Position numbers and translations under genes: made by a program
The notes under the pieces: model-generated
What the model was told of the DNA's origin: nothing
Seen by the model: only the letters and a program-made list of their open reading frames with translations
The model's database searches: none
Shown here: positions 10,626 to 49,282 of the stretch, one piece after another
How positions within the stretch are numbered: position 1 is the stretch's first letter
Layout of the letters: every line of letters starts with the position of its first letter
From: an uncultured Pseudomonadota bacterium
GTDB taxonomy: Bacteria > Pseudomonadota > Alphaproteobacteria > Rs-D84
DNA: 64,000 nt
Direction of reading: 5' to 3'
Assembly: GCA_900321105.1 (NCBI GenBank)
Contig: OOHL01000001.1
Coordinates: forward strand, 121,617-185,616

Positions 10626-11228
10626 ATGAAAGCAAAGAAAAAGAATTGGTTTTCGAAATTGTCTGATATATTCTTTCGTCCTAAATACTTTTTTTCACGC
10701 ATTGTCGCCGATGGTAAAATGGAAGACGCGATGTTAAAGGCTTTCCTTTGGGGGTTTGTTGGTGGAATATTGATTTTGATTATCAATTTATTTCGTGACG
10801 GACTGGCTGCATTTACAGTGTTTTCATTTTTCAAATCAATAATTATCTATCCGGTGTTGGCGGTTATGTTGCTGTTTATTACGGCGGGTTTGATGATGTT
10901 AGTGTCTGAAATCACAGGTGGTGAACGCGATTGGGAAATTGCAGTCAAAGGTATCGCATCAATTTTCTTTGTATATCCATTGGCGTTGTTGTTGAATGTG
11001 TTGGCATTTGATTGTCAATCGATTTGGGCGGTCAGTTTGCTGACAGATATATATATGGCATTTTTACTTTATAACATTGCGGTATATTGCATGCATGGCA
11101 AACGCATAAGTGTTTTATTTGTTGTAATGGTATGCTTCGTTTTGTTGGCGTGTTTGTATGTGTCAGATTACAAAACAGTTTGGTTTATGGTTAAAAACAT
11201 AGATGCAAATTCAATTTGTGTATTCTAG
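10626..11228 (+). CDS. Yip1-like multi-TM membrane protein
   Basis: 200 aa, 5 predicted TM segments. Confidence 0.4.
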   Translation: MKAKKKNWFSKLSDIFFRPKYFFSRIVADGKMEDAMLKAFLWGFVGGILILIINLFRDGLAAFTVFSFFKSIIIYPVLAVMLLFITAGLMMLVSEITGGERDWEIAVKGIASIFFVYPLALLLNVLAFDCQSIWAVSLLTDIYMAFLLYNIAVYCMHGKRISVLFVVMVCFVLLACLYVSDYKTVWFMVKNIDANSICVF

Positions 11229-11339
11229 GGAATATGAATACATACATATAGTTTTTATTATCTGTATTATATAAAATTAAGCACAGAATTTTTTTGTTTA
11301 CAATACAGCACAAGATGTTTTACACTGATTTTGAACCTG

Positions 11340-11530
11340 ATAATTGGGTTCGGGGCTGTCGAAAGCCTTGGTACATTCGGTGCGAAAGCATCGTTAAATG
11401 ATGTTGTGCGGTGTTTTTGCACCGATTCATATCCCCTGCGATTATGGTTGGGGGGCCGCGTACGTATATATAAATGTCGCGGAATCACCAATGTACTGAT
11501 TTTCGAACCCCCCGACCGCCCAATTGGTAG
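11340..11530. ncRNA. GC-rich structured noncoding element, candidate small RNA of unknown class
   Basis: about 50% GC in a roughly 33% GC genome; nested long-range pairings GGGTTCG/CGAACCC and GGTACATT(C)GGTG/CACCAATGTAC enclose three local hairpins; no plausible ORF. Confidence 0.25.
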
Positions 11531-11552
11531 CGTTTTTTATATTGGGGATAAA

Positions 11553-12500
11553 TTGTTTAAAATATTAAAGTATTTTTATTTAATTTATTTTGTATTTGTT
11601 ATCGCAAATACAGCGTATGCTGCGTCTTGCGCAACAGATTACGGTGTTGCGGTTCATCCTGTTGATCTGGATTTTAATATTAACAATCCTGAATATCCTG
11701 ATGAAATTACATTGACGGACAAAGGATTAAATACAGGTACATTTGTATTATCGGATGATGGAAATTGTTATTCGGGATATGAACCATACACGCGCGGTGG
11801 CGGTGATGTTTATCCATTAATAGAAGATTCAGATTTATGTGCGGATGGTTATTATCGTTCTGCTGGGAATTGTGTTGCGTTTACGGATGGTGGTTGTCCA
11901 ACAGGTCGTTATAATTCGGCGGTAAATATTGCGACATTTGTTGCATCAGAAGATGGTAATTGTTATTCCGGATTTGATGTTTATACGCGCAGCGGTGACG
12001 ATATATATCCATTGGTAGATTCGTCAAATTCGATATTGTGCCCGGCAGGTCAATATATGGCGAACGGAACATGTACGGCATATCCAATTGGCACATGTCC
12101 AGAAAATATGAAAAACACAACAACGAATTCTGCGACATGGTCGGCGATGACAAACGGTGTATGCCCATCTAATTATACAGAATATACAATATCAACCATT
12201 GAATACGCGTGTGACACGTATGTCAGTCACATAACATCCGAAACGCCGGCATGTTTGCTGATGTGTACAAATGGGCAAACTTTCTCGGAAGTAAATTCAT
12301 GTTCCGCGTTATGTGCCGATCATCATCAATTGATGACAGATACAGGTTTGGAATTCCCGATGTACACAACAAAACAAATCACGCCATCGTTGAATATACA
12401 GGTTGGGAATAATGTATGTTATGTGAATTTGGTCAGCGGTGCATCAGATGATGCGATAAATATAAAGTATAACAACACAACCTATCATACGGTGAAATAA
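11553..12500 (+). CDS. secreted Cys-rich protein with internal tandem repeats (TTG start)
   Basis: in-frame TTG preceded by GGGGA; signal peptide LFKILKYFYLIYFVFVIANTAYA; repeated DGNCYSGxxxYTRxGxDxYPL units; the annotated upstream extension covers the structured RNA-like region and is rejected. Confidence 0.5.
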   Translation: MFKILKYFYLIYFVFVIANTAYAASCATDYGVAVHPVDLDFNINNPEYPDEITLTDKGLNTGTFVLSDDGNCYSGYEPYTRGGGDVYPLIEDSDLCADGYYRSAGNCVAFTDGGCPTGRYNSAVNIATFVASEDGNCYSGFDVYTRSGDDIYPLVDSSNSILCPAGQYMANGTCTAYPIGTCPENMKNTTTNSATWSAMTNGVCPSNYTEYTISTIEYACDTYVSHITSETPACLLMCTNGQTFSEVNSCSALCADHHQLMTDTGLEFPMYTTKQITPSLNIQVGNNVCYVNLVSGASDDAINIKYNNTTYHTVK

Positions 12501-12557
12501 AGGATGAAAAAGGAAGAAGTAATTTTATAAAAAATTGCCCTGGTGGAAGAACCTTAT

Positions 12558-12735
12558 AAGTTCCGCCCCCGTGGGGGGGAGAATTAAAAGTTCTCCTCCT
12601 TTGGAGGAGTCCCCGCAGGGGGAGGTGGTAAGAGAGTGCAAATACTTGGAAAGACCACCCCGTCACTTCGTGCCACCCCTCCATAGAGGGGAACTAAGAA
12701 ATTCCGCCCCCGTGGGGGGGGAGAATATAAAAACT
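12558..12735. repeat. composite intergenic hairpin repeat, copy 1 (units A, B, C)
   Basis: ctcctcc-ttt-ggaggag, ccccc-gtg-ggggg and cccctc-cata-gagggg hairpins; unit C is repeated nearly verbatim at 13869..13947. Confidence 0.7.
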
Positions 12736-12817: not shown

Positions 12818-13226
12818 ATGAAACGCATAATGATATTTTTGATAATGATAATGGGAATATATTCAAACAAATACCGCGGTTGCGGTGTTAAATAAATTGG
12901 TTGGGGGCAGTGTTGATAATTCAACAACTGGACATCGATGGCAGGTTAACATGACGGATACCACCGCCGTCAAAGGCAAATCGTTATGTACAGGTATGCC
13001 TGGGGATTTTGCGGTTGTGAATACCGGTGTCGCCGATACAACCGATACCGGTTATCATTGCTATTGCAAAATGATGGCACCGGCAACATCGTATTGGGTA
13101 AATGCCAGTGGTTCATCGCCGTATGCGACTGAATCTGAATGTGAAAGCGGGTGTAACAGTGCATGTGCGAATTATATGGCAACAAATACAACATTTCGCA
13201 GCGCCGTATACGAAGCAGTGTGGTAA
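12818..13226 (+). pseudogene. frameshifted paralog of the DGR target gene
   Basis: a signal-peptide ORF MKRIMIFLIMIMG stops after 26 codons; the +1 frame (open from 12852) continues into a 113-aa ORF whose C-terminus (HCYCKMMAP..SYW...C.S.C..C.NY) parallels the active target (RYCWCKMTHP..SLW...C.S.C..C.NY). Confidence 0.5.
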
Positions 13227-13228
13227 GG

Positions 13229-13270
13229 GTTCTCCTCCTTCGGAGGAGTCCCCACAGGGTGAGAATAAAA
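13229..13270. repeat. composite hairpin repeat, short copy (unit B plus the tail of unit C)
   Basis: ctcctcc-ttc-ggaggag hairpin followed by gagaataaaa, as in the other copies. Confidence 0.6.
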
Positions 13271-13285: not shown

Positions 13286-13756
13286 ATGAAAAAGATATGG
13301 ATATGTGTGTTAATGATAATGGTGTTTGTAATACCAGCGTTGGCTGTGTCGGTCTGTGCCAAAGACAGTGTTGTTACGGTTGTATTGGATCCATCAATCG
13401 GTGGTAATTCATATACATATAATAACAGCACAGGCGTGTGGAAAACGGTGTTTTCGTACGGCAATGTGTCGGGGGTCAGCACATGTTCAACCGTCGCCCC
13501 AACGGGTGGCAGGGGTTCAACCAATACCAGTGCAGGCACCCCATTGGATGCCGTTGCAGGCGATACATCGGGACGATATTGTTGGTGTAAAATGACACAC
13601 CCAATGTCTTCGCTTTGGGCGTTCCTCTACGACTACGGGTTTGCTTCGAATTGCGCTTCGAACTGTGCGACCATCTGCGGTAACTACGTCCGGAACGGCG
13701 GCGATTTGCGCGGCGGGCTGTTCGGTTCGGTCGCCGCTGCGAATGCAGCGTATTGA
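13286..13756 (+). CDS. DGR target (variable) protein: small secreted Cys-rich protein with the VR at its C-terminus
   Basis: AAGGAAG RBS; signal peptide MKKIWICVLMIMVFVIPALA; the last ~45 codons align with the TR except at TR adenines. Confidence 0.8.
   Translation: MKKIWICVLMIMVFVIPALAVSVCAKDSVVTVVLDPSIGGNSYTYNNSTGVWKTVFSYGNVSGVSTCSTVAPTGGRGSTNTSAGTPLDAVAGDTSGRYCWCKMTHPMSSLWAFLYDYGFASNCASNCATICGNYVRNGGDLRGGLFGSVAAANAAY
13605..13734 (+). repeat. DGR variable repeat (VR)
   Basis: 130 bp; 116/130 identical to the TR at 14065..14194; 13 of 14 mismatches lie at TR adenines, 1 is C to G. Confidence 0.85.
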
Positions 13757-13802: not shown

Positions 13803-13829
13803 CCCGACACCACGGCAAGTGGTGTCGGG
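13803..13829 (+). promoter_or_regulatory. GC-rich 10-bp stem-loop about 45 nt downstream of the VR (candidate DGR homing-enhancing hairpin or terminator)
   Basis: cccgacacca-cggcaag-tggtgtcggg perfect inverted repeat. Confidence 0.5.
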
Positions 13830-13837
13830 AATTAAAA

Positions 13838-13947
13838 TTTCTCCTCCTTTGGAGGAGTCCTTGGAAATACACCCCGTCACTTCGTGCCACCCCTTCATAG
13901 AGGGGAACTAAGAAGTTCCGCACCCGCGGGGGGGAGAACATAAAAAA
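13838..13947. repeat. composite intergenic hairpin repeat, copy 2 (units B and C)
   Basis: near-identical to 12591..12735. Confidence 0.7.
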
Positions 13948-14064: not shown

Positions 14065-14194
14065 TGTCTTCGCTTTGGGCGTTCAACAACGACAACGGGA
14101 ATGCTTCGAATTGCGCTTCGAACTGTACGAACAACTGCGGTAACAACGTCCAGAACAACGCCGATTTGCGCGGCGGGCTGTTCGGTTCGGTCGC
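14065..14194 (+). repeat. DGR template repeat (TR), noncoding
   Basis: adenine-rich (about 28 A, many AAC/AAT triplets in the VR reading frame); matches the VR except at adenines. Confidence 0.85.
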
Positions 14195-14596
14195 TCCTTT
14201 GCAAGGTTATAACTTTGAATGCAAAGACAAAGTTTGGCTAACCTGTGGGACAAAGTGGTAAAACACTTTTCAGATGCGGATGTATCTGTTTATATATGCC
14301 TTGTCACATCAAAGGCGGGGCGGTATATCCTGTCCGAATACAAAGGACCAAACACAATACACAGGGGACATCTGGACTGGTAGGGTTTTTAACCTGAACG
14401 CCCTGGATGTCCAATACAAGTAGATTCGGGAACGAAGTGTATCGGAATCGTCACGGTATGCGCGCAGACACATAGTGTCGAGCGAATACGAGAATACATA
14501 ATTAGAAAAATCATAAAAACGGAGCTGTTTGATATGAGTTTTTATAGATTTTTATTATTGTGTATCGAGGAAAAAAATAAAACGAAGAGATAATAA

Positions 14597-14923
14597 ATGA
14601 CTTTAGATGAAATTAAAAAATTAGATGCAACATCTTGTCCAAGATTTTCGGCGTTCGCTAAAAATCAATTACCAATGCCGGGAAATAAAAAACGCCTTGA
14701 TGATATTTTAAACCGCGAAATTACTGTTATTGATTATCGAATTCGTAAATCTACGAAACGTGATGGCACCGAATGTTTACAAATGCAATTTTTACTGGGT
14801 GATGAAGTCTGTGTTGTTTTTACCGGCAGCAGCGTTTTAATCAACCAAATCAAAGAATCCAAAGATAATATTCCTTTTACTGCAACTTTGGTCAAAATGG
14901 ACAGATATTATTCTTTTTCTTGA
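14597..14923 (+). CDS. DGR accessory protein (not obviously Avd-like), 108 aa, ends 4 nt before the RT start
   Basis: position between TR and RT; beta-rich composition rather than a basic helical bundle. Confidence 0.45.
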   Translation: MTLDEIKKLDATSCPRFSAFAKNQLPMPGNKKRLDDILNREITVIDYRIRKSTKRDGTECLQMQFLLGDEVCVVFTGSSVLINQIKESKDNIPFTATLVKMDRYYSFS

Positions 14924-14927
14924 AACG

Positions 14928-15956
14928 ATGAAACGTTATAAAAATCTTTGGGATAAATTTATTTCTATGGAAAATCTGGAATTAGCAGCAAAAAAAGCAG
15001 TTAAATCCAAAAAAAATAAACCAGAAACAAAACTGTTTTTAGAACATAAAACAGAATTCTTGCTGAAATTACAACAAATGTTAATTGATGGGAATTTTAA
15101 TACATCCCAATATAAAGTTCGCAGAATTTTTGAACCAAAAGAAAGACTGATTTATATTTTACCCCTTTATCCAGATCATATTGTGCATCATGCGTTGATA
15201 AATATTCTGGGACCAATTTGGCAAAGTGGTTTTATTCGTGATTCTTATGCCTGTATCCCAGGCAGGGGATTGCATGCCGCATCAACCGCGATAATGAAAT
15301 TTATTCGTCGAAATAAATATGTTCTGCAATGCGATATTCGCAAATTTTATCCGTCCATAAATCATGATGTAATGTTTAATATAATAAAAAAGAAAATTGG
15401 CGATAAACGATTGTTGAATTTGTTACATAATATTATATGGTCATGTGGTGACGAAACAAATCTGCCAATTGGTAATTTAACATCACAATGGATGGGAAAT
15501 GTTTATATGAACGAATTGGATCATTTTGTAAAAGAACAATTACGATGCACGGACTATATTCGTTATTGTGATGATTTTTGTTTGTTCGCAAATGATAAAA
15601 AAACTTTGCATGAATATGAAAATAAATTGCATCAATTTGTGCGTGATAAATTAAAATTGGTATTTTCTAAATCTGTAATTCGAGTTGTTGCAAATGGGGT
15701 TGCGTTTATTGGTTATCGGCATTTCAAAAAATTTATATTGTTGCGAAGATATGGTGCTAAAAAAATGCGAAAACGTATTCTGCATATTGCAAAATACAGG
15801 GATAAATCTGATTTGGCAATTGGACAATTAGCGGCATATCATGGTTGGGCTAAATGGTGTTGCAGTCATAATTTTCTGACAGACGTTTGCAATCGTGCAA
15901 AAGAAATATCTGAAAAAACAGGTCAATTTATTTTTTGCAATTTGTTCAAGAATTAA
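14928..15956 (+). CDS. DGR-type reverse transcriptase
   Basis: RT motifs QCDIRKFYPSI, LPIGNLTSQ (the DGR-specific SQ motif) and YIRYCDDF (YxDD); 342 aa, typical DGR RT size. Confidence 0.85.
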   Translation: MKRYKNLWDKFISMENLELAAKKAVKSKKNKPETKLFLEHKTEFLLKLQQMLIDGNFNTSQYKVRRIFEPKERLIYILPLYPDHIVHHALINILGPIWQSGFIRDSYACIPGRGLHAASTAIMKFIRRNKYVLQCDIRKFYPSINHDVMFNIIKKKIGDKRLLNLLHNIIWSCGDETNLPIGNLTSQWMGNVYMNELDHFVKEQLRCTDYIRYCDDFCLFANDKKTLHEYENKLHQFVRDKLKLVFSKSVIRVVANGVAFIGYRHFKKFILLRRYGAKKMRKRILHIAKYRDKSDLAIGQLAAYHGWAKWCCSHNFLTDVCNRAKEISEKTGQFIFCNLFKN

Positions 15957-40343: not shown

Positions 40344-40419
40344 GGATGCATAGCTCAGTTGGTAGAGCAACTGACTCTTAATCAGTGGGTCCAGGGTTCG
40401 AGTCCCTGTGCGTCCACCA
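40344..40419 (+). tRNA. tRNA-Lys (anticodon CUU), with encoded CCA
   Basis: cloverleaf with 7-bp acceptor stem (one G-U pair); anticodon loop CUCUUAA; T-loop GGTTCGAGTCC. Confidence 0.9.
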
Positions 40420-40578: not shown

Positions 40579-40697
40579 GATTTTTTATTGTTGTAGAAAA
40601 TTTTTGTAACTTATTGATATTAACATTTTTTTTTGCGCTTGTATGGTCCCATCGTATATGACATAATATAAAAGAAAGTAATACCAAGGAGAATGAT

Positions 40698-41849
40698 ATG
40701 AAAAAACTTACAATATTAACATCAGTTTTAGCATTAGCTGCGTGCGGTGGTGGTTCTGGTGGTGGCGCTGGCGTTGCACCAATGGCAAATGTAACACCTA
40801 TGAATTTAGGATCACAGTATTCAAGGATTGCATGTAATTCAGATAGAAGCGAATGCAGAGGTGTGACAGTAGATTCAAATGGTAACACAACATTGTCTGA
40901 AGCAAGATTCGCCTCTAAAAGACTATCCAGAGCAGCATCAACACATGGTAATATTGCGGTTGGAAACGAACAATGGGATTTATTCTATGCAGATGATATT
41001 GATATGAATGTTATTTATTCTCCAGGGGAAGATAAAGTCGCGACACAAACATTTATTCTTGATTCCAAAGGAAATATAACAGGATTAAAATGGTCTGGGG
41101 ATGAAGAAGTTGCAGAGTTTGTACCAGGAGTTGTGTTATCTGGTATGAAATATATCGGTGATAATAAATTTAGTTTAAAATCTTCTGAATCAGACGGTAC
41201 ACTTGATTTTGAAAACTATGGTGATTTAAATTTTGCTAATTTTGGTGTTGTAAAAATACAAAATATGAAATGGACTGGTCACGATGTTGGCGAGGGTAAT
41301 ATGGATATACCTTTTGCTGGTGGATATAATGTTTTAAAACAAAACCCAACTGAAAATTTGGCGGATCAAACCATTACATATACAGGAACAGCGCGAGGTA
41401 TGGTTGAATATGCTGGTACAAAGACAAGTGATGCAGCACAAGATTATTTGAACATAACCGCAAATAATGCAACATTAACTTTGGATACAACTGGTGCAAA
41501 TGTAGTAGAAACTTTTGCTGGTAATTTTGTAAAAACAGAAAATCCATCTAAACACTGGTACACGATAACAGCAATAAACGATAATGGTGCTATAAATTAC
41601 GTATTTACTGGTAATAATGAAACAGAAAGCGATAGATTTGATATTGCGGGTACAAATCATACTGTTCAAATGTTTAAGACAGGGTATTACAGTGATAAAA
41701 AAGATACTGCGTCAGAAGCATCCGGTTTGTTCCAATATCAGGAAATTATAGACCCTGCATTAAAAGAACATCCAGGGGATGAATCACCTATGATACAAGA
41801 AAACAATAAAACCATATATTTTGGATTTGGTGGAAAGGTGACAGAATAA
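40698..41849 (+). CDS. surface-lipoprotein (SLP)-like lipoprotein 1
   Basis: signal peptide MKKLTILTSVLALAACGGGSGGG, a Neisseria/Pasteurellaceae-style SLP lipobox with a Gly/Ser linker; paralog of 41956..43125. Confidence 0.45.
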   Translation: MKKLTILTSVLALAACGGGSGGGAGVAPMANVTPMNLGSQYSRIACNSDRSECRGVTVDSNGNTTLSEARFASKRLSRAASTHGNIAVGNEQWDLFYADDIDMNVIYSPGEDKVATQTFILDSKGNITGLKWSGDEEVAEFVPGVVLSGMKYIGDNKFSLKSSESDGTLDFENYGDLNFANFGVVKIQNMKWTGHDVGEGNMDIPFAGGYNVLKQNPTENLADQTITYTGTARGMVEYAGTKTSDAAQDYLNITANNATLTLDTTGANVVETFAGNFVKTENPSKHWYTITAINDNGAINYVFTGNNETESDRFDIAGTNHTVQMFKTGYYSDKKDTASEASGLFQYQEIIDPALKEHPGDESPMIQENNKTIYFGFGGKVTE

Positions 41850-41899: not shown

Positions 41900-41955
41900 T
41901 GGTAATGTTCCTAGTATTGTACTAGGATATATTTATCGAAAGAAAAGGGGGCGTT

Positions 41956-43125
41956 ATGAAAAAACTTATAATATTAACATCTGTATTGGCATTGGCTGCA
42001 TGTGGCGGCGGTTCCGGTGGTCCAGACGAAAGATTTGTAGTAAGATCATCTTCCCCATACGCATATGTAACACAAAGCGCAGCAGAATCGAACAAAGATA
42101 TCACGTCAATTGCATCTGAAGTTCGCAAATGTGTTGATGATAATTGCGCAAAGAATACACACAATGGCAATGGTACGAATTTGCCAACGGTGACACCACG
42201 TATAAGCTCATACAGTGATAATACAGGTAATTGGAATGTGTACAATTTGTCAGATGTTAAATTTAACATGGCAGACGAGGGGTTGGAACCAGGCGACGAA
42301 AGTTTTAATTTTGTTGTCGATGACAAAGAAGGCAGTGCAACACGTGGCAAAATCATTGGTATTGATATGGGATTGCGAGATTCAGAAACACATCCACAAC
42401 ATGGTAATACAAATGTCAAGGCGGATTTTGTGCGTAACGATGATAACAGTTTTTCTGGGTATGTAAAACACAATGGTGAACATGCTGATGCAAATGGATG
42501 GACATATGTGGAAAAGGCGAATTTTGAATCATTGGGCAAAGGTTTGACTAATAAACTTACATATTCTGATTTTGGGCAATTGGATTTAAGTGAAGCGAAA
42601 GAATACTGGAAACCTGTATTTATTGGCGGTTATGATGTGAAGAAAATATCCCCAGCGGATGTTAATGTTAAAAAAACATCAAAAGATGACGTGTTTTCTG
42701 GAAAGGTAGTTGGTTATGTTGCGTCAAATGATGGACATGGTAATGTTGAAACTTTCGCATTAGAATCTAACAACGCAACATTGACTTTTGATAAAGACAA
42801 TAACAAAACAACAACATTGAATGCAAGTTTTACAGACTGGTACAATATGGTGTACACAGAAAATGACACAACAAAATCTGTTGTATTGTCTGGGTATAAT
42901 GGTGACCATCAGATGTTAACAACACCAGAAGATGGTAAAGTGACGATTGAAAATACCGGGATATTATCAGATATACGATATTTTGGTGATAATAATGTTC
43001 CAATTGAATCTGTCGGTTTAATTCAAATTCGTGATTGTGGAGGAACCGAATGTCCAGAACACTTTGACAGCGAGGAAGTTCGTGTTGATGTTGGTTTTGG
43101 TGTCAGCAGAAAGATTACTGATTGA
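41956..43125 (+). CDS. surface-lipoprotein (SLP)-like lipoprotein 2
   Basis: signal peptide MKKLIILTSVLALAACGGGSGG; its stop overlaps the downstream Slam-like gene start. Confidence 0.45.
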   Translation: MKKLIILTSVLALAACGGGSGGPDERFVVRSSSPYAYVTQSAAESNKDITSIASEVRKCVDDNCAKNTHNGNGTNLPTVTPRISSYSDNTGNWNVYNLSDVKFNMADEGLEPGDESFNFVVDDKEGSATRGKIIGIDMGLRDSETHPQHGNTNVKADFVRNDDNSFSGYVKHNGEHADANGWTYVEKANFESLGKGLTNKLTYSDFGQLDLSEAKEYWKPVFIGGYDVKKISPADVNVKKTSKDDVFSGKVVGYVASNDGHGNVETFALESNNATLTFDKDNNKTTTLNASFTDWYNMVYTENDTTKSVVLSGYNGDHQMLTTPEDGKVTIENTGILSDIRYFGDNNVPIESVGLIQIRDCGGTECPEHFDSEEVRVDVGFGVSRKITD

Positions 43126-47971: not shown

Positions 47972-49282
47972 TTATTTTATTATTTCACCACGCAGGCATG
48001 ATTTATTTGCATCGGTGATTTTTATTTTCTGTAATGGTGTAATTTCAACAGATGGCTTTTCAACGATACATTGTTGCATGTACGGCGTTCGAAATACTAT
48101 ATTATGTCCAGTTTTATCTGTGCCTTCCATTAAACAAACCATTTCTTTCCCAATGCAAGCCATATTAAATTCGCGTTGGTTTTCGTTTAACTGTAAATCA
48201 AGTCTTTGCAAACGAACAGATTTTATTTGTTCACTGATTTGATTGGGCATCAATGCCGCAGCTGTATGCGGGCGGGGTGAATATTTAAAAGAATATGAAT
48301 TGATATATTTTATTTCGCGTGCGATATTCAAAGTTTGTTCAAAATCTTCATCGCTTTCACCAGGGAACCCAACAATAAAATCAGAAGATATTTGAATGTC
48401 TGGACGAACTTGCTTTAACTTTTGAACTATTGTTTTATATGCATCCAAATCATCAGGGCGATTCATTTTCTTTAATATATTTGGTGAACCGCTTTGTATG
48501 GGCATATTTAAAAATGGTAATAATTTTGGTTCAACACCAAACATTTCAATCAAATCATCACTCATTTCTGTTGGATAACTGGATGTGAAACGTATGCGTT
48601 GAATTTCGGATAATTTAGCGGCTTCTTTTATTAAATCAGATAATTTATATAATTTGCCGTTTTCATCTGTATATTTATAACCATTTACATTTTGTCCCAA
48701 AAAACAGATTTCAATTGCACCAGTTTTTGCAGCGTTTATTGTGTCCTTTATAACATCGTCAAATGGACGCGATAATTCGCGACCGCGGGTGTATGGAACG
48801 ATGCAGTAAGTGCAACAATGATTACAACCTTCTTGAATTGGAATATATGCAACCAGTGGGGACTTTTCCATTTTTGGTAATTCATCAAATTTTTCAAGAC
48901 CGCCTAAATCAATATTTAATAATTTTGTATCTGGGGTTTTGATAATTTCTGGTAATTTATGATAACTTTGTGGACCCAAAACAAAATTTAATTCTGGGAT
49001 TCTGCGAAAAGCGTCCGCCCCAGATTCACGTGCAACACACCCAACAATCCCAAGCAGGGCAGATTCTTTCTTTGCGCGTCGTATTCTGCCCAATGCAGAA
49101 TAAACTTTATCAGTTGCCTTGGCACGAACAGAGCAGGTGTTTAAAATAATTAAATCTGCATCTGCTATATCATCAGTTTGTGAAAATCCGTGTTTTTCAA
49201 GCATGGCGGCAATCCTTTGTCCGTCATACACATTCATTTGGCAACCAAAAGTTTGTATAAAAAATTTCTGCATTTTTGACAT
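47972..49282 (-). CDS. miaB: tRNA-2-methylthio-N6-dimethylallyladenosine synthase
   Basis: radical-SAM CxxxCxxC (CNHCCTYC); TRAM domain; N-terminal MTTase Cys triad. Confidence 0.85.
   Translation of the reverse strand: MSKMQKFFIQTFGCQMNVYDGQRIAAMLEKHGFSQTDDIADADLIILNTCSVRAKATDKVYSALGRIRRAKKESALLGIVGCVARESGADAFRRIPELNFVLGPQSYHKLPEIIKTPDTKLLNIDLGGLEKFDELPKMEKSPLVAYIPIQEGCNHCCTYCIVPYTRGRELSRPFDDVIKDTINAAKTGAIEICFLGQNVNGYKYTDENGKLYKLSDLIKEAAKLSEIQRIRFTSSYPTEMSDDLIEMFGVEPKLLPFLNMPIQSGSPNILKKMNRPDDLDAYKTIVQKLKQVRPDIQISSDFIVGFPGESDEDFEQTLNIAREIKYINSYSFKYSPRPHTAAALMPNQISEQIKSVRLQRLDLQLNENQREFNMACIGKEMVCLMEGTDKTGHNIVFRTPYMQQCIVEKPSVEITPLQKIKITDANKSCLRGEIIK

Follow-up and report, generated by a model that had tools for sequence, protein, structure and literature searches.

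The sequence considered here, referred to below as the window, is a stretch of 64,000 nucleotides (nt) from an uncultured alphaproteobacterium of the lineage Rs-D84 (assembly GCA_900321105.1, contig OOHL01000001.1, positions 121,617 to 185,616), and all coordinates are counted from its first base. Between 11228 and 15960 on the plus strand lies an island of 4.7 kb that carries a gene for a Cys-rich protein, small Cys-rich target genes, a variable region (VR), a template region (TR), an accessory open reading frame (ORF) and a reverse transcriptase (RT), and this insertion is a complete diversity-generating retroelement (DGR). In the six closest relatives (L001-L006) the genes that flank the island are adjacent, some 25-50 nt apart, and the element at the 5' end of the island, which is rich in guanine and cytosine (GC) and is the subject of this work, is therefore at the head of a 4.7-kb insertion. 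The island's first gene, taken from the ORF list, runs from 11553 to 12500 on the plus strand; it has a TTG start and encodes a 315-amino-acid Cys-rich protein with an N-terminal signal peptide, for which Pfam has no family.

The element is a genuine structured RNA and not an N-terminal extension of the ORF that overlaps it. Its GC content is 49.5% over 11335-11530, compared with 27% and 31% in the 200-nt flanks and 36.5% in the window as a whole. A preliminary description of this DNA, made from the letters and a list of ORFs, had already singled out a GC-rich element with several stems, which holds true, and had set it in a genome of about 33% GC, a figure below that of the window. On the plus strand 11335-11545 folds with a minimum free energy (MFE) of -88.1 kcal/mol against -61.3 +/- 4.3 kcal/mol for shuffled sequences (z = -6.25, none of 200 shuffles as good), whilst the minus strand reaches a z of -3.06, and the stronger signal on the plus strand points to G-U pairs on that strand. 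A promoter scan places a sigma-70-type promoter at 11297..11326 on the plus strand, with a -35 box TTTACA (11297-302), an 18-nt spacer and a -10 box TACACT (11321-26), from which transcription would start at about 11332-33; furthermore, a TATAAT-like -10 box lies 6-8 nt 5' of the conserved GAAYCY that opens the RNA in 24 of 24 homologues. On the basis of this consensus and conservation the promoter is predicted to drive a transcript of about 205 nt (11332-11538).

The neighbouring der gene assigns the window to Candidatus Enterousia or a close relative. Homologues are found in Candidatus Enterousia, Alphaproteobacteria of the uncultured order Rs-D84 represented by metagenome-assembled genomes from rumen and gut, whose genomes are reduced, at approximately 0.75-1.0 Mb (PMC12306168). 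A blastn search of 80 related der loci returned only 2 homologues, and nhmmer found them in a few of these 80 loci, at differing positions and in differing orientations; beyond the der loci a pattern scan of metagenomes with nhmmer filtering brought the collection to at least 24 non-redundant full-length copies in all. The pattern scan gave mostly chance matches, with about 19 of 120 being true members among the matches listed. An alignment of 24 non-redundant full-length homologues (A2) was used to test a model of the structure, which pairs 94.8% of its cells, with changes on both sides at 24 pairs, compared with none of 500 shuffles as good and 34-46% pairing when the partners are slid out of register. 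An Rfam scan and a search for covariation were the checks suggested at the outset. At gathering thresholds the former finds two tRNAs only in the whole window and nothing at the element, whilst covariation in the 24 homologues is strong.

The fold consists of a 5' module, made up of two hairpins (P0 and P1), a single-stranded box and two further hairpins (P3a and P3b), and a 3' three-way junction formed by a closing helix B and the hairpins P4 and P5, all on the plus strand. P0 (11333..11351) pairs GAACCU at 11333-38 with GGGUUC at 11346-51 in 24 of 24 homologues, with changes from U-G to C-G; in the relatives it is longer and capped by GNRA-type loops (GGGA or GAGA), and its inner extension covaries (CCAAU/AUUGG, CCAUA/UAUGG, CCAUU/AAUGG). 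Hairpin P1 (11352..11369) pairs GGGGCU at 11352-57 with AGCCUU at 11364-69, with 95.8% of cells paired and one compensatory change from G-C to A-U, and its loop holds a box, a1 (UCGAAA, 11359-64). Directly after it comes a second box, b1 (GGUACAUU, 11370..11377), followed by P3a (CGGUGC-GAAA-GCAUCG, 11378-93) and P3b (CGGUG-UUUU-GCACCG, 11409-24), which are 93-100% paired over 11378..11424. Three homologues (L018, L101 and L137) retain two P3 hairpins with differing sequences, whereas one long hairpin takes their place in L050 and in the MFE fold of the window copy, such that this region of the window copy may form either two hairpins or one. The 3' domain (11446..11517) is closed by helix B, GGUUGGGGGG at 11446-55 with CCCCCCGACC at 11508-17, which is 96% paired and shows A-U, G-C, U-A and G-U at a single position. 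P4 (CCGCG...CGCGG, 11456-82, with 11456-60 opposite 11478-82) has compensatory changes at 6 of 7 pairs, and the stem of P5 pairs AAUCA at 11483-87 with UGAUU at 11497-501 around a loop that holds box b' (11488-96). The junction box a' (UUUCGA, 11501-06) is followed by a conserved AAC just 5' of the 3' strand of helix B (B3').

Two pseudoknots join the domains, one between the loop of hairpin P1 and the junction 5' of B3', the other between the single-stranded box and the loop of P5, and both covary (score 0.81 against 0.21 for shuffled alignments). In the former, PK2, a1 pairs with a', and the three central positions take the pair types AU9/CG7/GC4/UA2, GC16/AU7 and AU11/CG6/UA5/GC1. The latter, PK1, has b1 as its 5' strand and AAUGUACU at 11490-97 as its partner, and in its core (b1 with 11490-96 of AAUGUAC(U)) 7 of 7 pairs are compensatory, with 4-5 pair types each among the 24 homologues. 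When the two boxes are tested exactly, cognate partners share 14-16 complementary nt compared with a mean of 6-10 for non-cognate partners, and b1 follows a1 at a constant offset of 12-14 nt. The same result is obtained for a second subgroup of Enterousia copies, described below, and for four bona fide loci of the Rfam family sRNA-Xcc1; duplexfold with long probes had given too much noise in the second subgroup, and the exact two-box test took its place. The a1:a' and b1:b' pairings covary strongly and are specific to each copy.

This fold accounts for several of the helices in the preliminary description. The local hairpins CCGCG...CGCGG and CGGUG-UUUU-GCACCG were correctly recognised, as P4 and P3b covary in the 24 homologues. 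Of a second long-range helix the core, GGUACAUU with 11490-97, stands as PK1, whilst the proposed GGTG/CACC extension is specific to the window copy. The closing helix GGGTTCG/CGAACCC has to be given up, because its strands belong to the better-supported P0 and to the covarying PK2; moreover GGGTTCG lies at 11346-52, two bases from the 11344..11350 originally assigned to it.

A covariance model of the 3' domain only (R1) scores the element at 74.2 bits and finds no second copy in the window, yet in 988 kb of Enterousia DNA it gives 24 matches at E<0.1, several loci having two. Many of these belong to the second subgroup, in which helix B is GGUUGGAGG/CCUCCAACC and the plan is the same: a hairpin, a hairpin with a loop matching the junction 5' of B3', a strand matching the P5 loop, and a further hairpin. 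A hairpin with a U-run lies 3' of the element in every homologous copy, and a Shine-Dalgarno (SD) sequence with a start codon on the same strand usually follows within 10-40 nt. The genes thus placed include many orphan signal-peptide proteins and Listeria-Bacteroides-repeat proteins, together with two trypsin-like proteases, a family 2 glycosyltransferase (GT2), a TRL lipoprotein, helix-turn-helix (HTH)-like proteins of 61-77 amino acids and, in L007, L113b, L002 and L050, proteins resembling DGR targets. Some variation on this arrangement has been observed. At L113 (5914-5999, minus strand) there is a short form composed of a promoter, a J-like hairpin (J is described below), the three-way junction and a terminator, with no recognisable a1/b1; a protein resembling DGR targets is encoded downstream of this short form, and its contig also has a full-length copy, at a distance of 5.7 kb. 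In the second subgroup L056, L037, L055, L068 and L045 represent one recurrent locus where the element adjoins the end of a divergent tRNA gene and a conserved 61-amino-acid HTH-like protein (M.I..IE.YR....P......L...E..Y......P..YQLIMFI) is encoded downstream, an arrangement that recalls phage immunity regions.

The 3' end of the element is terminator-like. At 11514..11538 on the plus strand GACCGCC...GGUAGCG can form a hairpin followed by six U residues (11533-38), the 5' arm of the hairpin being formed in part by the final 4 nt of helix B. The arrangement is shared by most of the family, as about 40 of its 43 members have a hairpin of -9 to -16 kcal/mol with a U-run that begins at the GACC or AACC of B3'. 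Since the terminator arm starts in the last 4 bases of helix B, the helix and the terminator are mutually exclusive. A third pairing partner is provided by J (UCCCCUG, 11432..11438), a mimic of B3' that can pair with the 5' strand of helix B (B5') as an alternative local hairpin. Across 43 copies J lies 5-25 nt 5' of B and its pairing with B5' has a mean energy of -14.0 kcal/mol compared with -7.8 kcal/mol for shuffled sequences; furthermore, J shifts in step with B between subgroups (CCCUGAC, CUCCAACC, CUCCUGACC). The SD of the Cys-rich gene (GGGG, 11544-47) begins 6 nt after the U-run, and with only 6-15 nt from the U-run to the SD and start of this gene there is no space for a separate promoter. 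Specific to the window copy is an alternative hairpin, CCCAAU at 11519-24 with AUUGGG at 11541-46 (11519..11546), which is the MFE structure of a 45-nt segment at -6.4 kcal/mol and would hide the downstream SD, so that control in this copy may be partly translational.

The closest relative of the 3' domain among described RNAs appears to be sRNA-Xcc1 (RF02221), a small RNA (sRNA) family that the candidate classes of the preliminary description did not include, and the same is true of C4, to which we return below; it is in this C4/sRNA-Xcc1 antisense class that the affinity of the element lies. A permissive Rfam scan listed nothing else at the element: the window copy aligns to the full sRNA-Xcc1 model (1-87) over 11446-11525 with 27.8 bits and an E-value of 0.0087, below the gathering score of 53, six relatives reach 37.5-46.4 bits over the full length, again below threshold, and bona fide copies from Neisseria, Aeromonas, a Nitratidesulfovibrio plasmid and a Pseudomonas plasmid score 69-73 bits. 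A fifth bona fide copy lies 5' of a putative antirepressor gene in the Stx-type Shigella phage Ss-VASD (L205). In the reverse direction R1 recovers all five in register, with E-values from 3e-5 to 0.03, and the kinship thus has reciprocal sequence support, albeit below threshold. Shared features include a 9-10-bp G-rich closing helix, a first hairpin in which an AUA..AA/GAA internal loop surrounds an inner stem with a GNRA cap, a second hairpin and a UUxxxAAC junction (as judged from L137 aligned to the model), and the three-way junction of sRNA-Xcc1 is recognisable in the element from the column-wise alignment, the covariation of B, P4 and P5, and the recovery by R1. In location the comparison is mixed: the element lies 5' of a same-strand gene inside an inserted island, whereas the same-strand genes 3' of sRNA-Xcc1 in mobile elements belong to other classes, the neighbours used in the comparison being symE, ORF6N/BRO and antirepressor genes.

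The comparison is informative in the other direction too. At all five bona fide loci (L201-L205) a hairpin with a loop that matches the junction, followed by a strand that matches the loop of the second hairpin, lies approximately 90-105 nt upstream, and these a1/b1 boxes are outside the 87-nt Rfam model; in these loci sRNA-Xcc1 is therefore only the 3' half of a C4-like unit. In three of them the boxes recur downstream as a2/b2, with the second box over the SD of a hypothetical gene (L203), a BRO-family gene (L204) and the putative antirepressor gene (L205), and a hairpin with a U-run lies between a1b1 and the junction in the same three. The order of the boxes, a1 b1, a' b' and a2 b2, is that of the immI operon of phage P1. 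Often, too, the a1b1 module of bona fide copies has next to it on the 3' side a U-run preceded by a hairpin whose CCCGUCAG loop is conserved. The Enterousia family differs from the bona fide copies in having no a2/b2, in the fusion of the two modules to form a single leader that ends in an intrinsic terminator, and in its host, which is the chromosome of a reduced-genome gut alphaproteobacterium and not the integron cassettes, prophages and plasmids of Proteobacteria in which sRNA-Xcc1 is found.

The link to C4, an antisense RNA that has its a1/b1 module in phages P1 and P7 (immI operon c4-icd-ant), is one of architecture. The immI record of phage P1 annotates a1, b1, a 77-nt C4 RNA, a2, b2, icd and ant, and Rfam places C4 (RF01695) and c4-a1b1 (RF03163) in clan CL00128, leaving RF02221 outside it. 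The c4-a1b1 consensus has two hairpins, the second with a1 in the loop, and then a single-stranded b1; the 5' module of the element matches it helix for helix, P0 and hairpin P1 corresponding to its first and second hairpins. In the C4 consensus a closing helix is followed by two hairpins, of which the second has b' in the loop, and by a junction that ends in AAC, and this matches the 3' module in the same way. As in C4, b' is found in a hairpin loop and a' in the junction, with a1/b1 partners at a fixed spacing; a1 and b1 are 14 nt apart in phage P1 and 12-14 nt in the Enterousia family, and b1 is 66 nt from the closing helix of C4 in phage P1 and 68 nt from that of the element in the window. 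The model isrK (RF01394) covers, in phage P1, the a1b1 hairpins together with the next hairpin and U-run. RNase P cleaves C4 at a GGW that opens the closing helix, and the boxes set target specificity (PMC5320573). B5' opens with GGU at 11446, which fits this motif and is a predicted RNase P site. The closing helix is 17 bp in phage P1, where a2/b2 lie over the icd ribosome site. Repression in phage P1 is reportedly translational with Rho-dependent polarity (Biere, Citron and Schuster, 1992). The element, unlike phage P1, has no a2/b2 and has an intrinsic terminator that overlaps the closing helix, and downstream of it are a secreted Cys-rich protein and a DGR in place of an antirepressor. A separate observation concerns the phage P1 record itself (48299-48344, locus L206 3300-3345): just 5' of the mature C4, CGUUACGCCC is able to form 10 bp with GGGCGUGAUG, which belongs to the strand equivalent to B5', and the resulting alternative precursor hairpin would be the analogue of J and is not annotated in that record.

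A multi-copy expansion on the chromosome also has a parallel, as the Group 1 C4-like sRNAs of Acinetobacter baumannii have many chromosomal copies with variable boxes that are processed from longer transcripts (PMC5320573). The Acinetobacter copies, however, match the C4 model itself and have a different relation to the genes downstream, whereas the Enterousia copies are direct 5' leaders.

No second pair of a and b boxes is present in the whole 64-kb window, and a search for a2/b2 as exact 6-7-mers over 900 nt downstream was negative apart from anecdotal matches. Among the Enterousia copies b' pairs with the ribosome binding site at -3.65 kcal/mol (cognate) against -3.30 kcal/mol (non-cognate) and a' at -3.32 against -3.33 kcal/mol, compared with -8.37 against -1.66 kcal/mol for the positive control, b' with b1. 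Because a2/b2 are absent from the downstream ribosome site in the Enterousia family, control is probably exerted on transcription. In the window copy the P5 loop CCAAUGU (11488-94) happens to be complementary to AUAUUGG (11539-45), which overlaps the SD, with a duplex energy of -8.5 kcal/mol, the second-best of 22 over a 52-nt start-codon region; this is anecdotal and could be a vestigial b2-like site or chance.

The element is best described as a divergent antisense-RNA locus of C4/sRNA-Xcc1 type, including a1b1, that is used as a leader in which an intrinsic terminator replaces the ribosome-site targets. Its identification and structure are well supported; the mechanism is one that we infer. 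It seems to us fairly probable, taking both parts together, that the element is an antisense module of this type embedded in a leader and that its control operates at the level of transcription. In the mechanism that we propose B5' would pair either with the upstream mimic J or with its true partner B3'. If B5' paired with J, B3' would be left free to close the hairpin of the terminator, with a short RNA as the released product. Docking of a1b1 on a'b' would help helix B to form and so sequester the terminator arm, such that RNA polymerase would continue into the Cys-rich gene and perhaps through the remainder of the DGR island. The released three-way-junction RNA, possibly trimmed by RNase P, could then pair with a1/b1 in transcripts still being made from its own locus and so influence the switch by feedback. 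A precedent for antisense-dependent termination is the CI RNA of satellite phage P4. Like attenuator leaders, the element has three mutually exclusive pairings (J with B5', helix B and the terminator) in a promoter-proximal leader; unlike riboswitch and attenuator leaders it has no evident ligand, leader peptide or protein partner, and sensing would be by pairing of RNA with RNA within the locus.

A number of observations weigh against this account. The promoter, start site, processing and termination are all read from sequence, and the direction of the switch, action in cis or in trans, and the feedback are hypotheses and not results. The terminator of the window copy is degenerate and weak, with no call from a simple terminator scan, and attenuation there may be weak or replaced by occlusion of the SD; the same copy has the weakest pairing of J with B5', at -11.1 kcal/mol compared with -8.4 kcal/mol for the control. 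Phage P1 has a J-like pairing in the absence of an intrinsic terminator, and J may therefore serve processing and not attenuation. As regards kinship, C4, c4-a1b1 and isrK have no match at E<=10 in 11200-11650 and none at E<=1 in 16 relatives, R1 scores only 6.5 bits on the C4 of phage P1 (E = 0.27), the score of the element for sRNA-Xcc1 stays below the gathering score, and kinship with C4 proper is architectural and not a demonstrated homology.

Of the other explanations the one that deserves most attention, although we think it unlikely, is that the element is a free-standing trans-acting C4-like sRNA, with the junction as its product acting on other mRNAs through a' and b', a1/b1 serving only to mask or mature the junction, and the downstream gene a mere neighbour expressed by leaky read-through. 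Every copy does end in a hairpin and U-run, the family is multi-copy with hypervariable boxes and in this resembles the A. baumannii Group 1 sRNAs (PMC5320573), and sRNA-Xcc1 has been described as trans-acting. The absence from the window of a second a-b pair speaks against it, however, as does the lack of systematic complementarity to downstream ribosome sites, and in most copies the SD lies 6-40 nt after the U-run, which leaves no space for a promoter, so that expression of the downstream gene must pass through the element. It would seem decidedly improbable that the element is a riboswitch for a metabolite or second messenger, in which the double-pseudoknotted fold is an aptamer and J, helix B and the terminator an expression platform. 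A position in the 5' leader, a fold that is complex and conserved and in which some unpaired stretches are invariant, helices that exclude one another, an intrinsic terminator and a high copy number upstream of surface-protein genes would all suit such a reading, yet both tertiary pairings are hypervariable and copy-specific, which fits address codes and not a ligand pocket, the element has a clear relation in architecture and sequence to mobile-element antisense RNAs, no metabolic theme unites the genes downstream, and the Rfam scan matched no riboswitch family.

Its place at the 5' edge of the 4.7-kb DGR island, and the DGR-target-like proteins that follow several homologues, might also suggest a cis element particular to the DGR, for instance part of the retroelement RNA or a homing signal. 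We regard this as very improbable, as the TR lies 2.5 kb and the RT 3.4 kb downstream of the element, the genes that follow most homologues have no connection with DGRs (HTH, GT2, trypsin-like proteases, lipoproteins), and the relatives in phages and plasmids have no DGR. The earlier suggestion of a regulatory sRNA or a cis-element of the cassette was broadly right in so far as a unit with promoter and terminator heads the DGR island, and wrong in tying it to the retroelement. There is next to no chance that the element is protein-coding, as an extension of the ORF at 11331-12500 or as a 74-amino-acid ORF on the minus strand, or that it is a housekeeping RNA (6S, transfer-messenger RNA (tmRNA) or signal recognition particle (SRP) RNA), and both can be considered refuted for practical purposes. 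ORFs do overlap it on both strands, and GGGGCUG and the ACCA-like ends recall tmRNA and tRNA; however, substitutions track base-pairing and not codons, and the genes to which the homologues are joined are unrelated and lie at differing distances from them. The start of the downstream protein is the TTG at 11553, where its signal peptide begins, in agreement with the preliminary view that the overlapping ORFs are unsupported. A rejection of tmRNA was likewise sound, as neither ARAGORN nor Rfam finds one at the element, whilst a 6S-like RNA, which had been put forward, is not what is seen: there is no match to 6S (RF00013), SRP RNA or tmRNA at E<=10, the family is multi-copy, and the fold has two domains with two pseudoknots in place of a rod with a central bubble. 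SRP RNA, RNase P RNA, T-box leaders, hammerhead and other ribozymes, and ANTAR targets were also considered and dropped, their defining motifs or matches being absent.

In the rest of the island the VR (13605-13738) and TR (14065-14198) differ at 16 positions, of which 13 are at adenines of the TR, and the RT, of 342 amino acids (14928-15956), matches RVT_1 with an E-value of 1.9e-13. An accessory ORF of 108 amino acids (14597-14923) has no Pfam match and is not obviously Avd, and small Cys-rich proteins are encoded at 12885-13226 and 13286-13756. No convincing plus-strand terminator was found between 11540 and approximately 14270, so the leader may govern at least the first genes of the island. 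Between the island genes there are GC-rich repeated hairpin units (12553-12720, 13210-13251 and 13819-13934; GTTCTCCTCCTTTGGAGGAGTCC, CCGCCCCCGTGGGGGGG), and among them a sequence of 65 nt occurs at both 12656 and 13870 with 94% identity; units of a similar kind follow the element in L189, L148 and L031, and they may be terminator-like or resemble repetitive extragenic palindromic (REP) sequences. Elsewhere in the window a pair of paralogous lipoprotein-type N-termini (40697-40763 and 41955-42021, MKKLTILTSVLALAACGGGSGG-like) shares 85% identity across 67 nt, and both lie shortly after tRNA-Lys (40344-40419).

A bolder reading, doubtful as a whole and with a small chance of being correct, is that Enterousia has domesticated a phage-immunity RNA into genome-wide, self-addressed RNA switches that give bistable expression of surface proteins. 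If this were true there would be perhaps 10-25 copies per genome of about 0.9 Mb, each with its own a/b address code and each placed at the head either of a whole DGR cassette, as in the window, or of a gene whose product is a small HTH regulator or a surface or secreted protein. The terminated and processed junction RNA would bind the a1/b1 of its own locus only and lock that locus OFF or ON, and the outcome would be heritable, DNA-independent, phase-variable expression on top of the hypervariation generated by the DGR.

The element described here represents an unannotated family of structured RNAs, with two covarying pseudoknots and no threshold match in Rfam, from an uncultured gut lineage with reduced genomes, and the family is placed in the C4/sRNA-Xcc1 class of antisense RNAs from mobile elements. 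The presence of a1b1 at five bona fide sRNA-Xcc1 loci, with a2/b2 clear at three, would recast sRNA-Xcc1 from a supposed trans-acting virulence sRNA into an immunity-type regulator, in cis or in trans, of antirepressor-like genes. With an intrinsic terminator and no targets at the ribosome site, the Enterousia variant is a natural system in which to ask what role the enigmatic a1/b1 boxes have. Finally, the element may be the control point for the DGR island and for many surface proteins in a host-associated bacterium.

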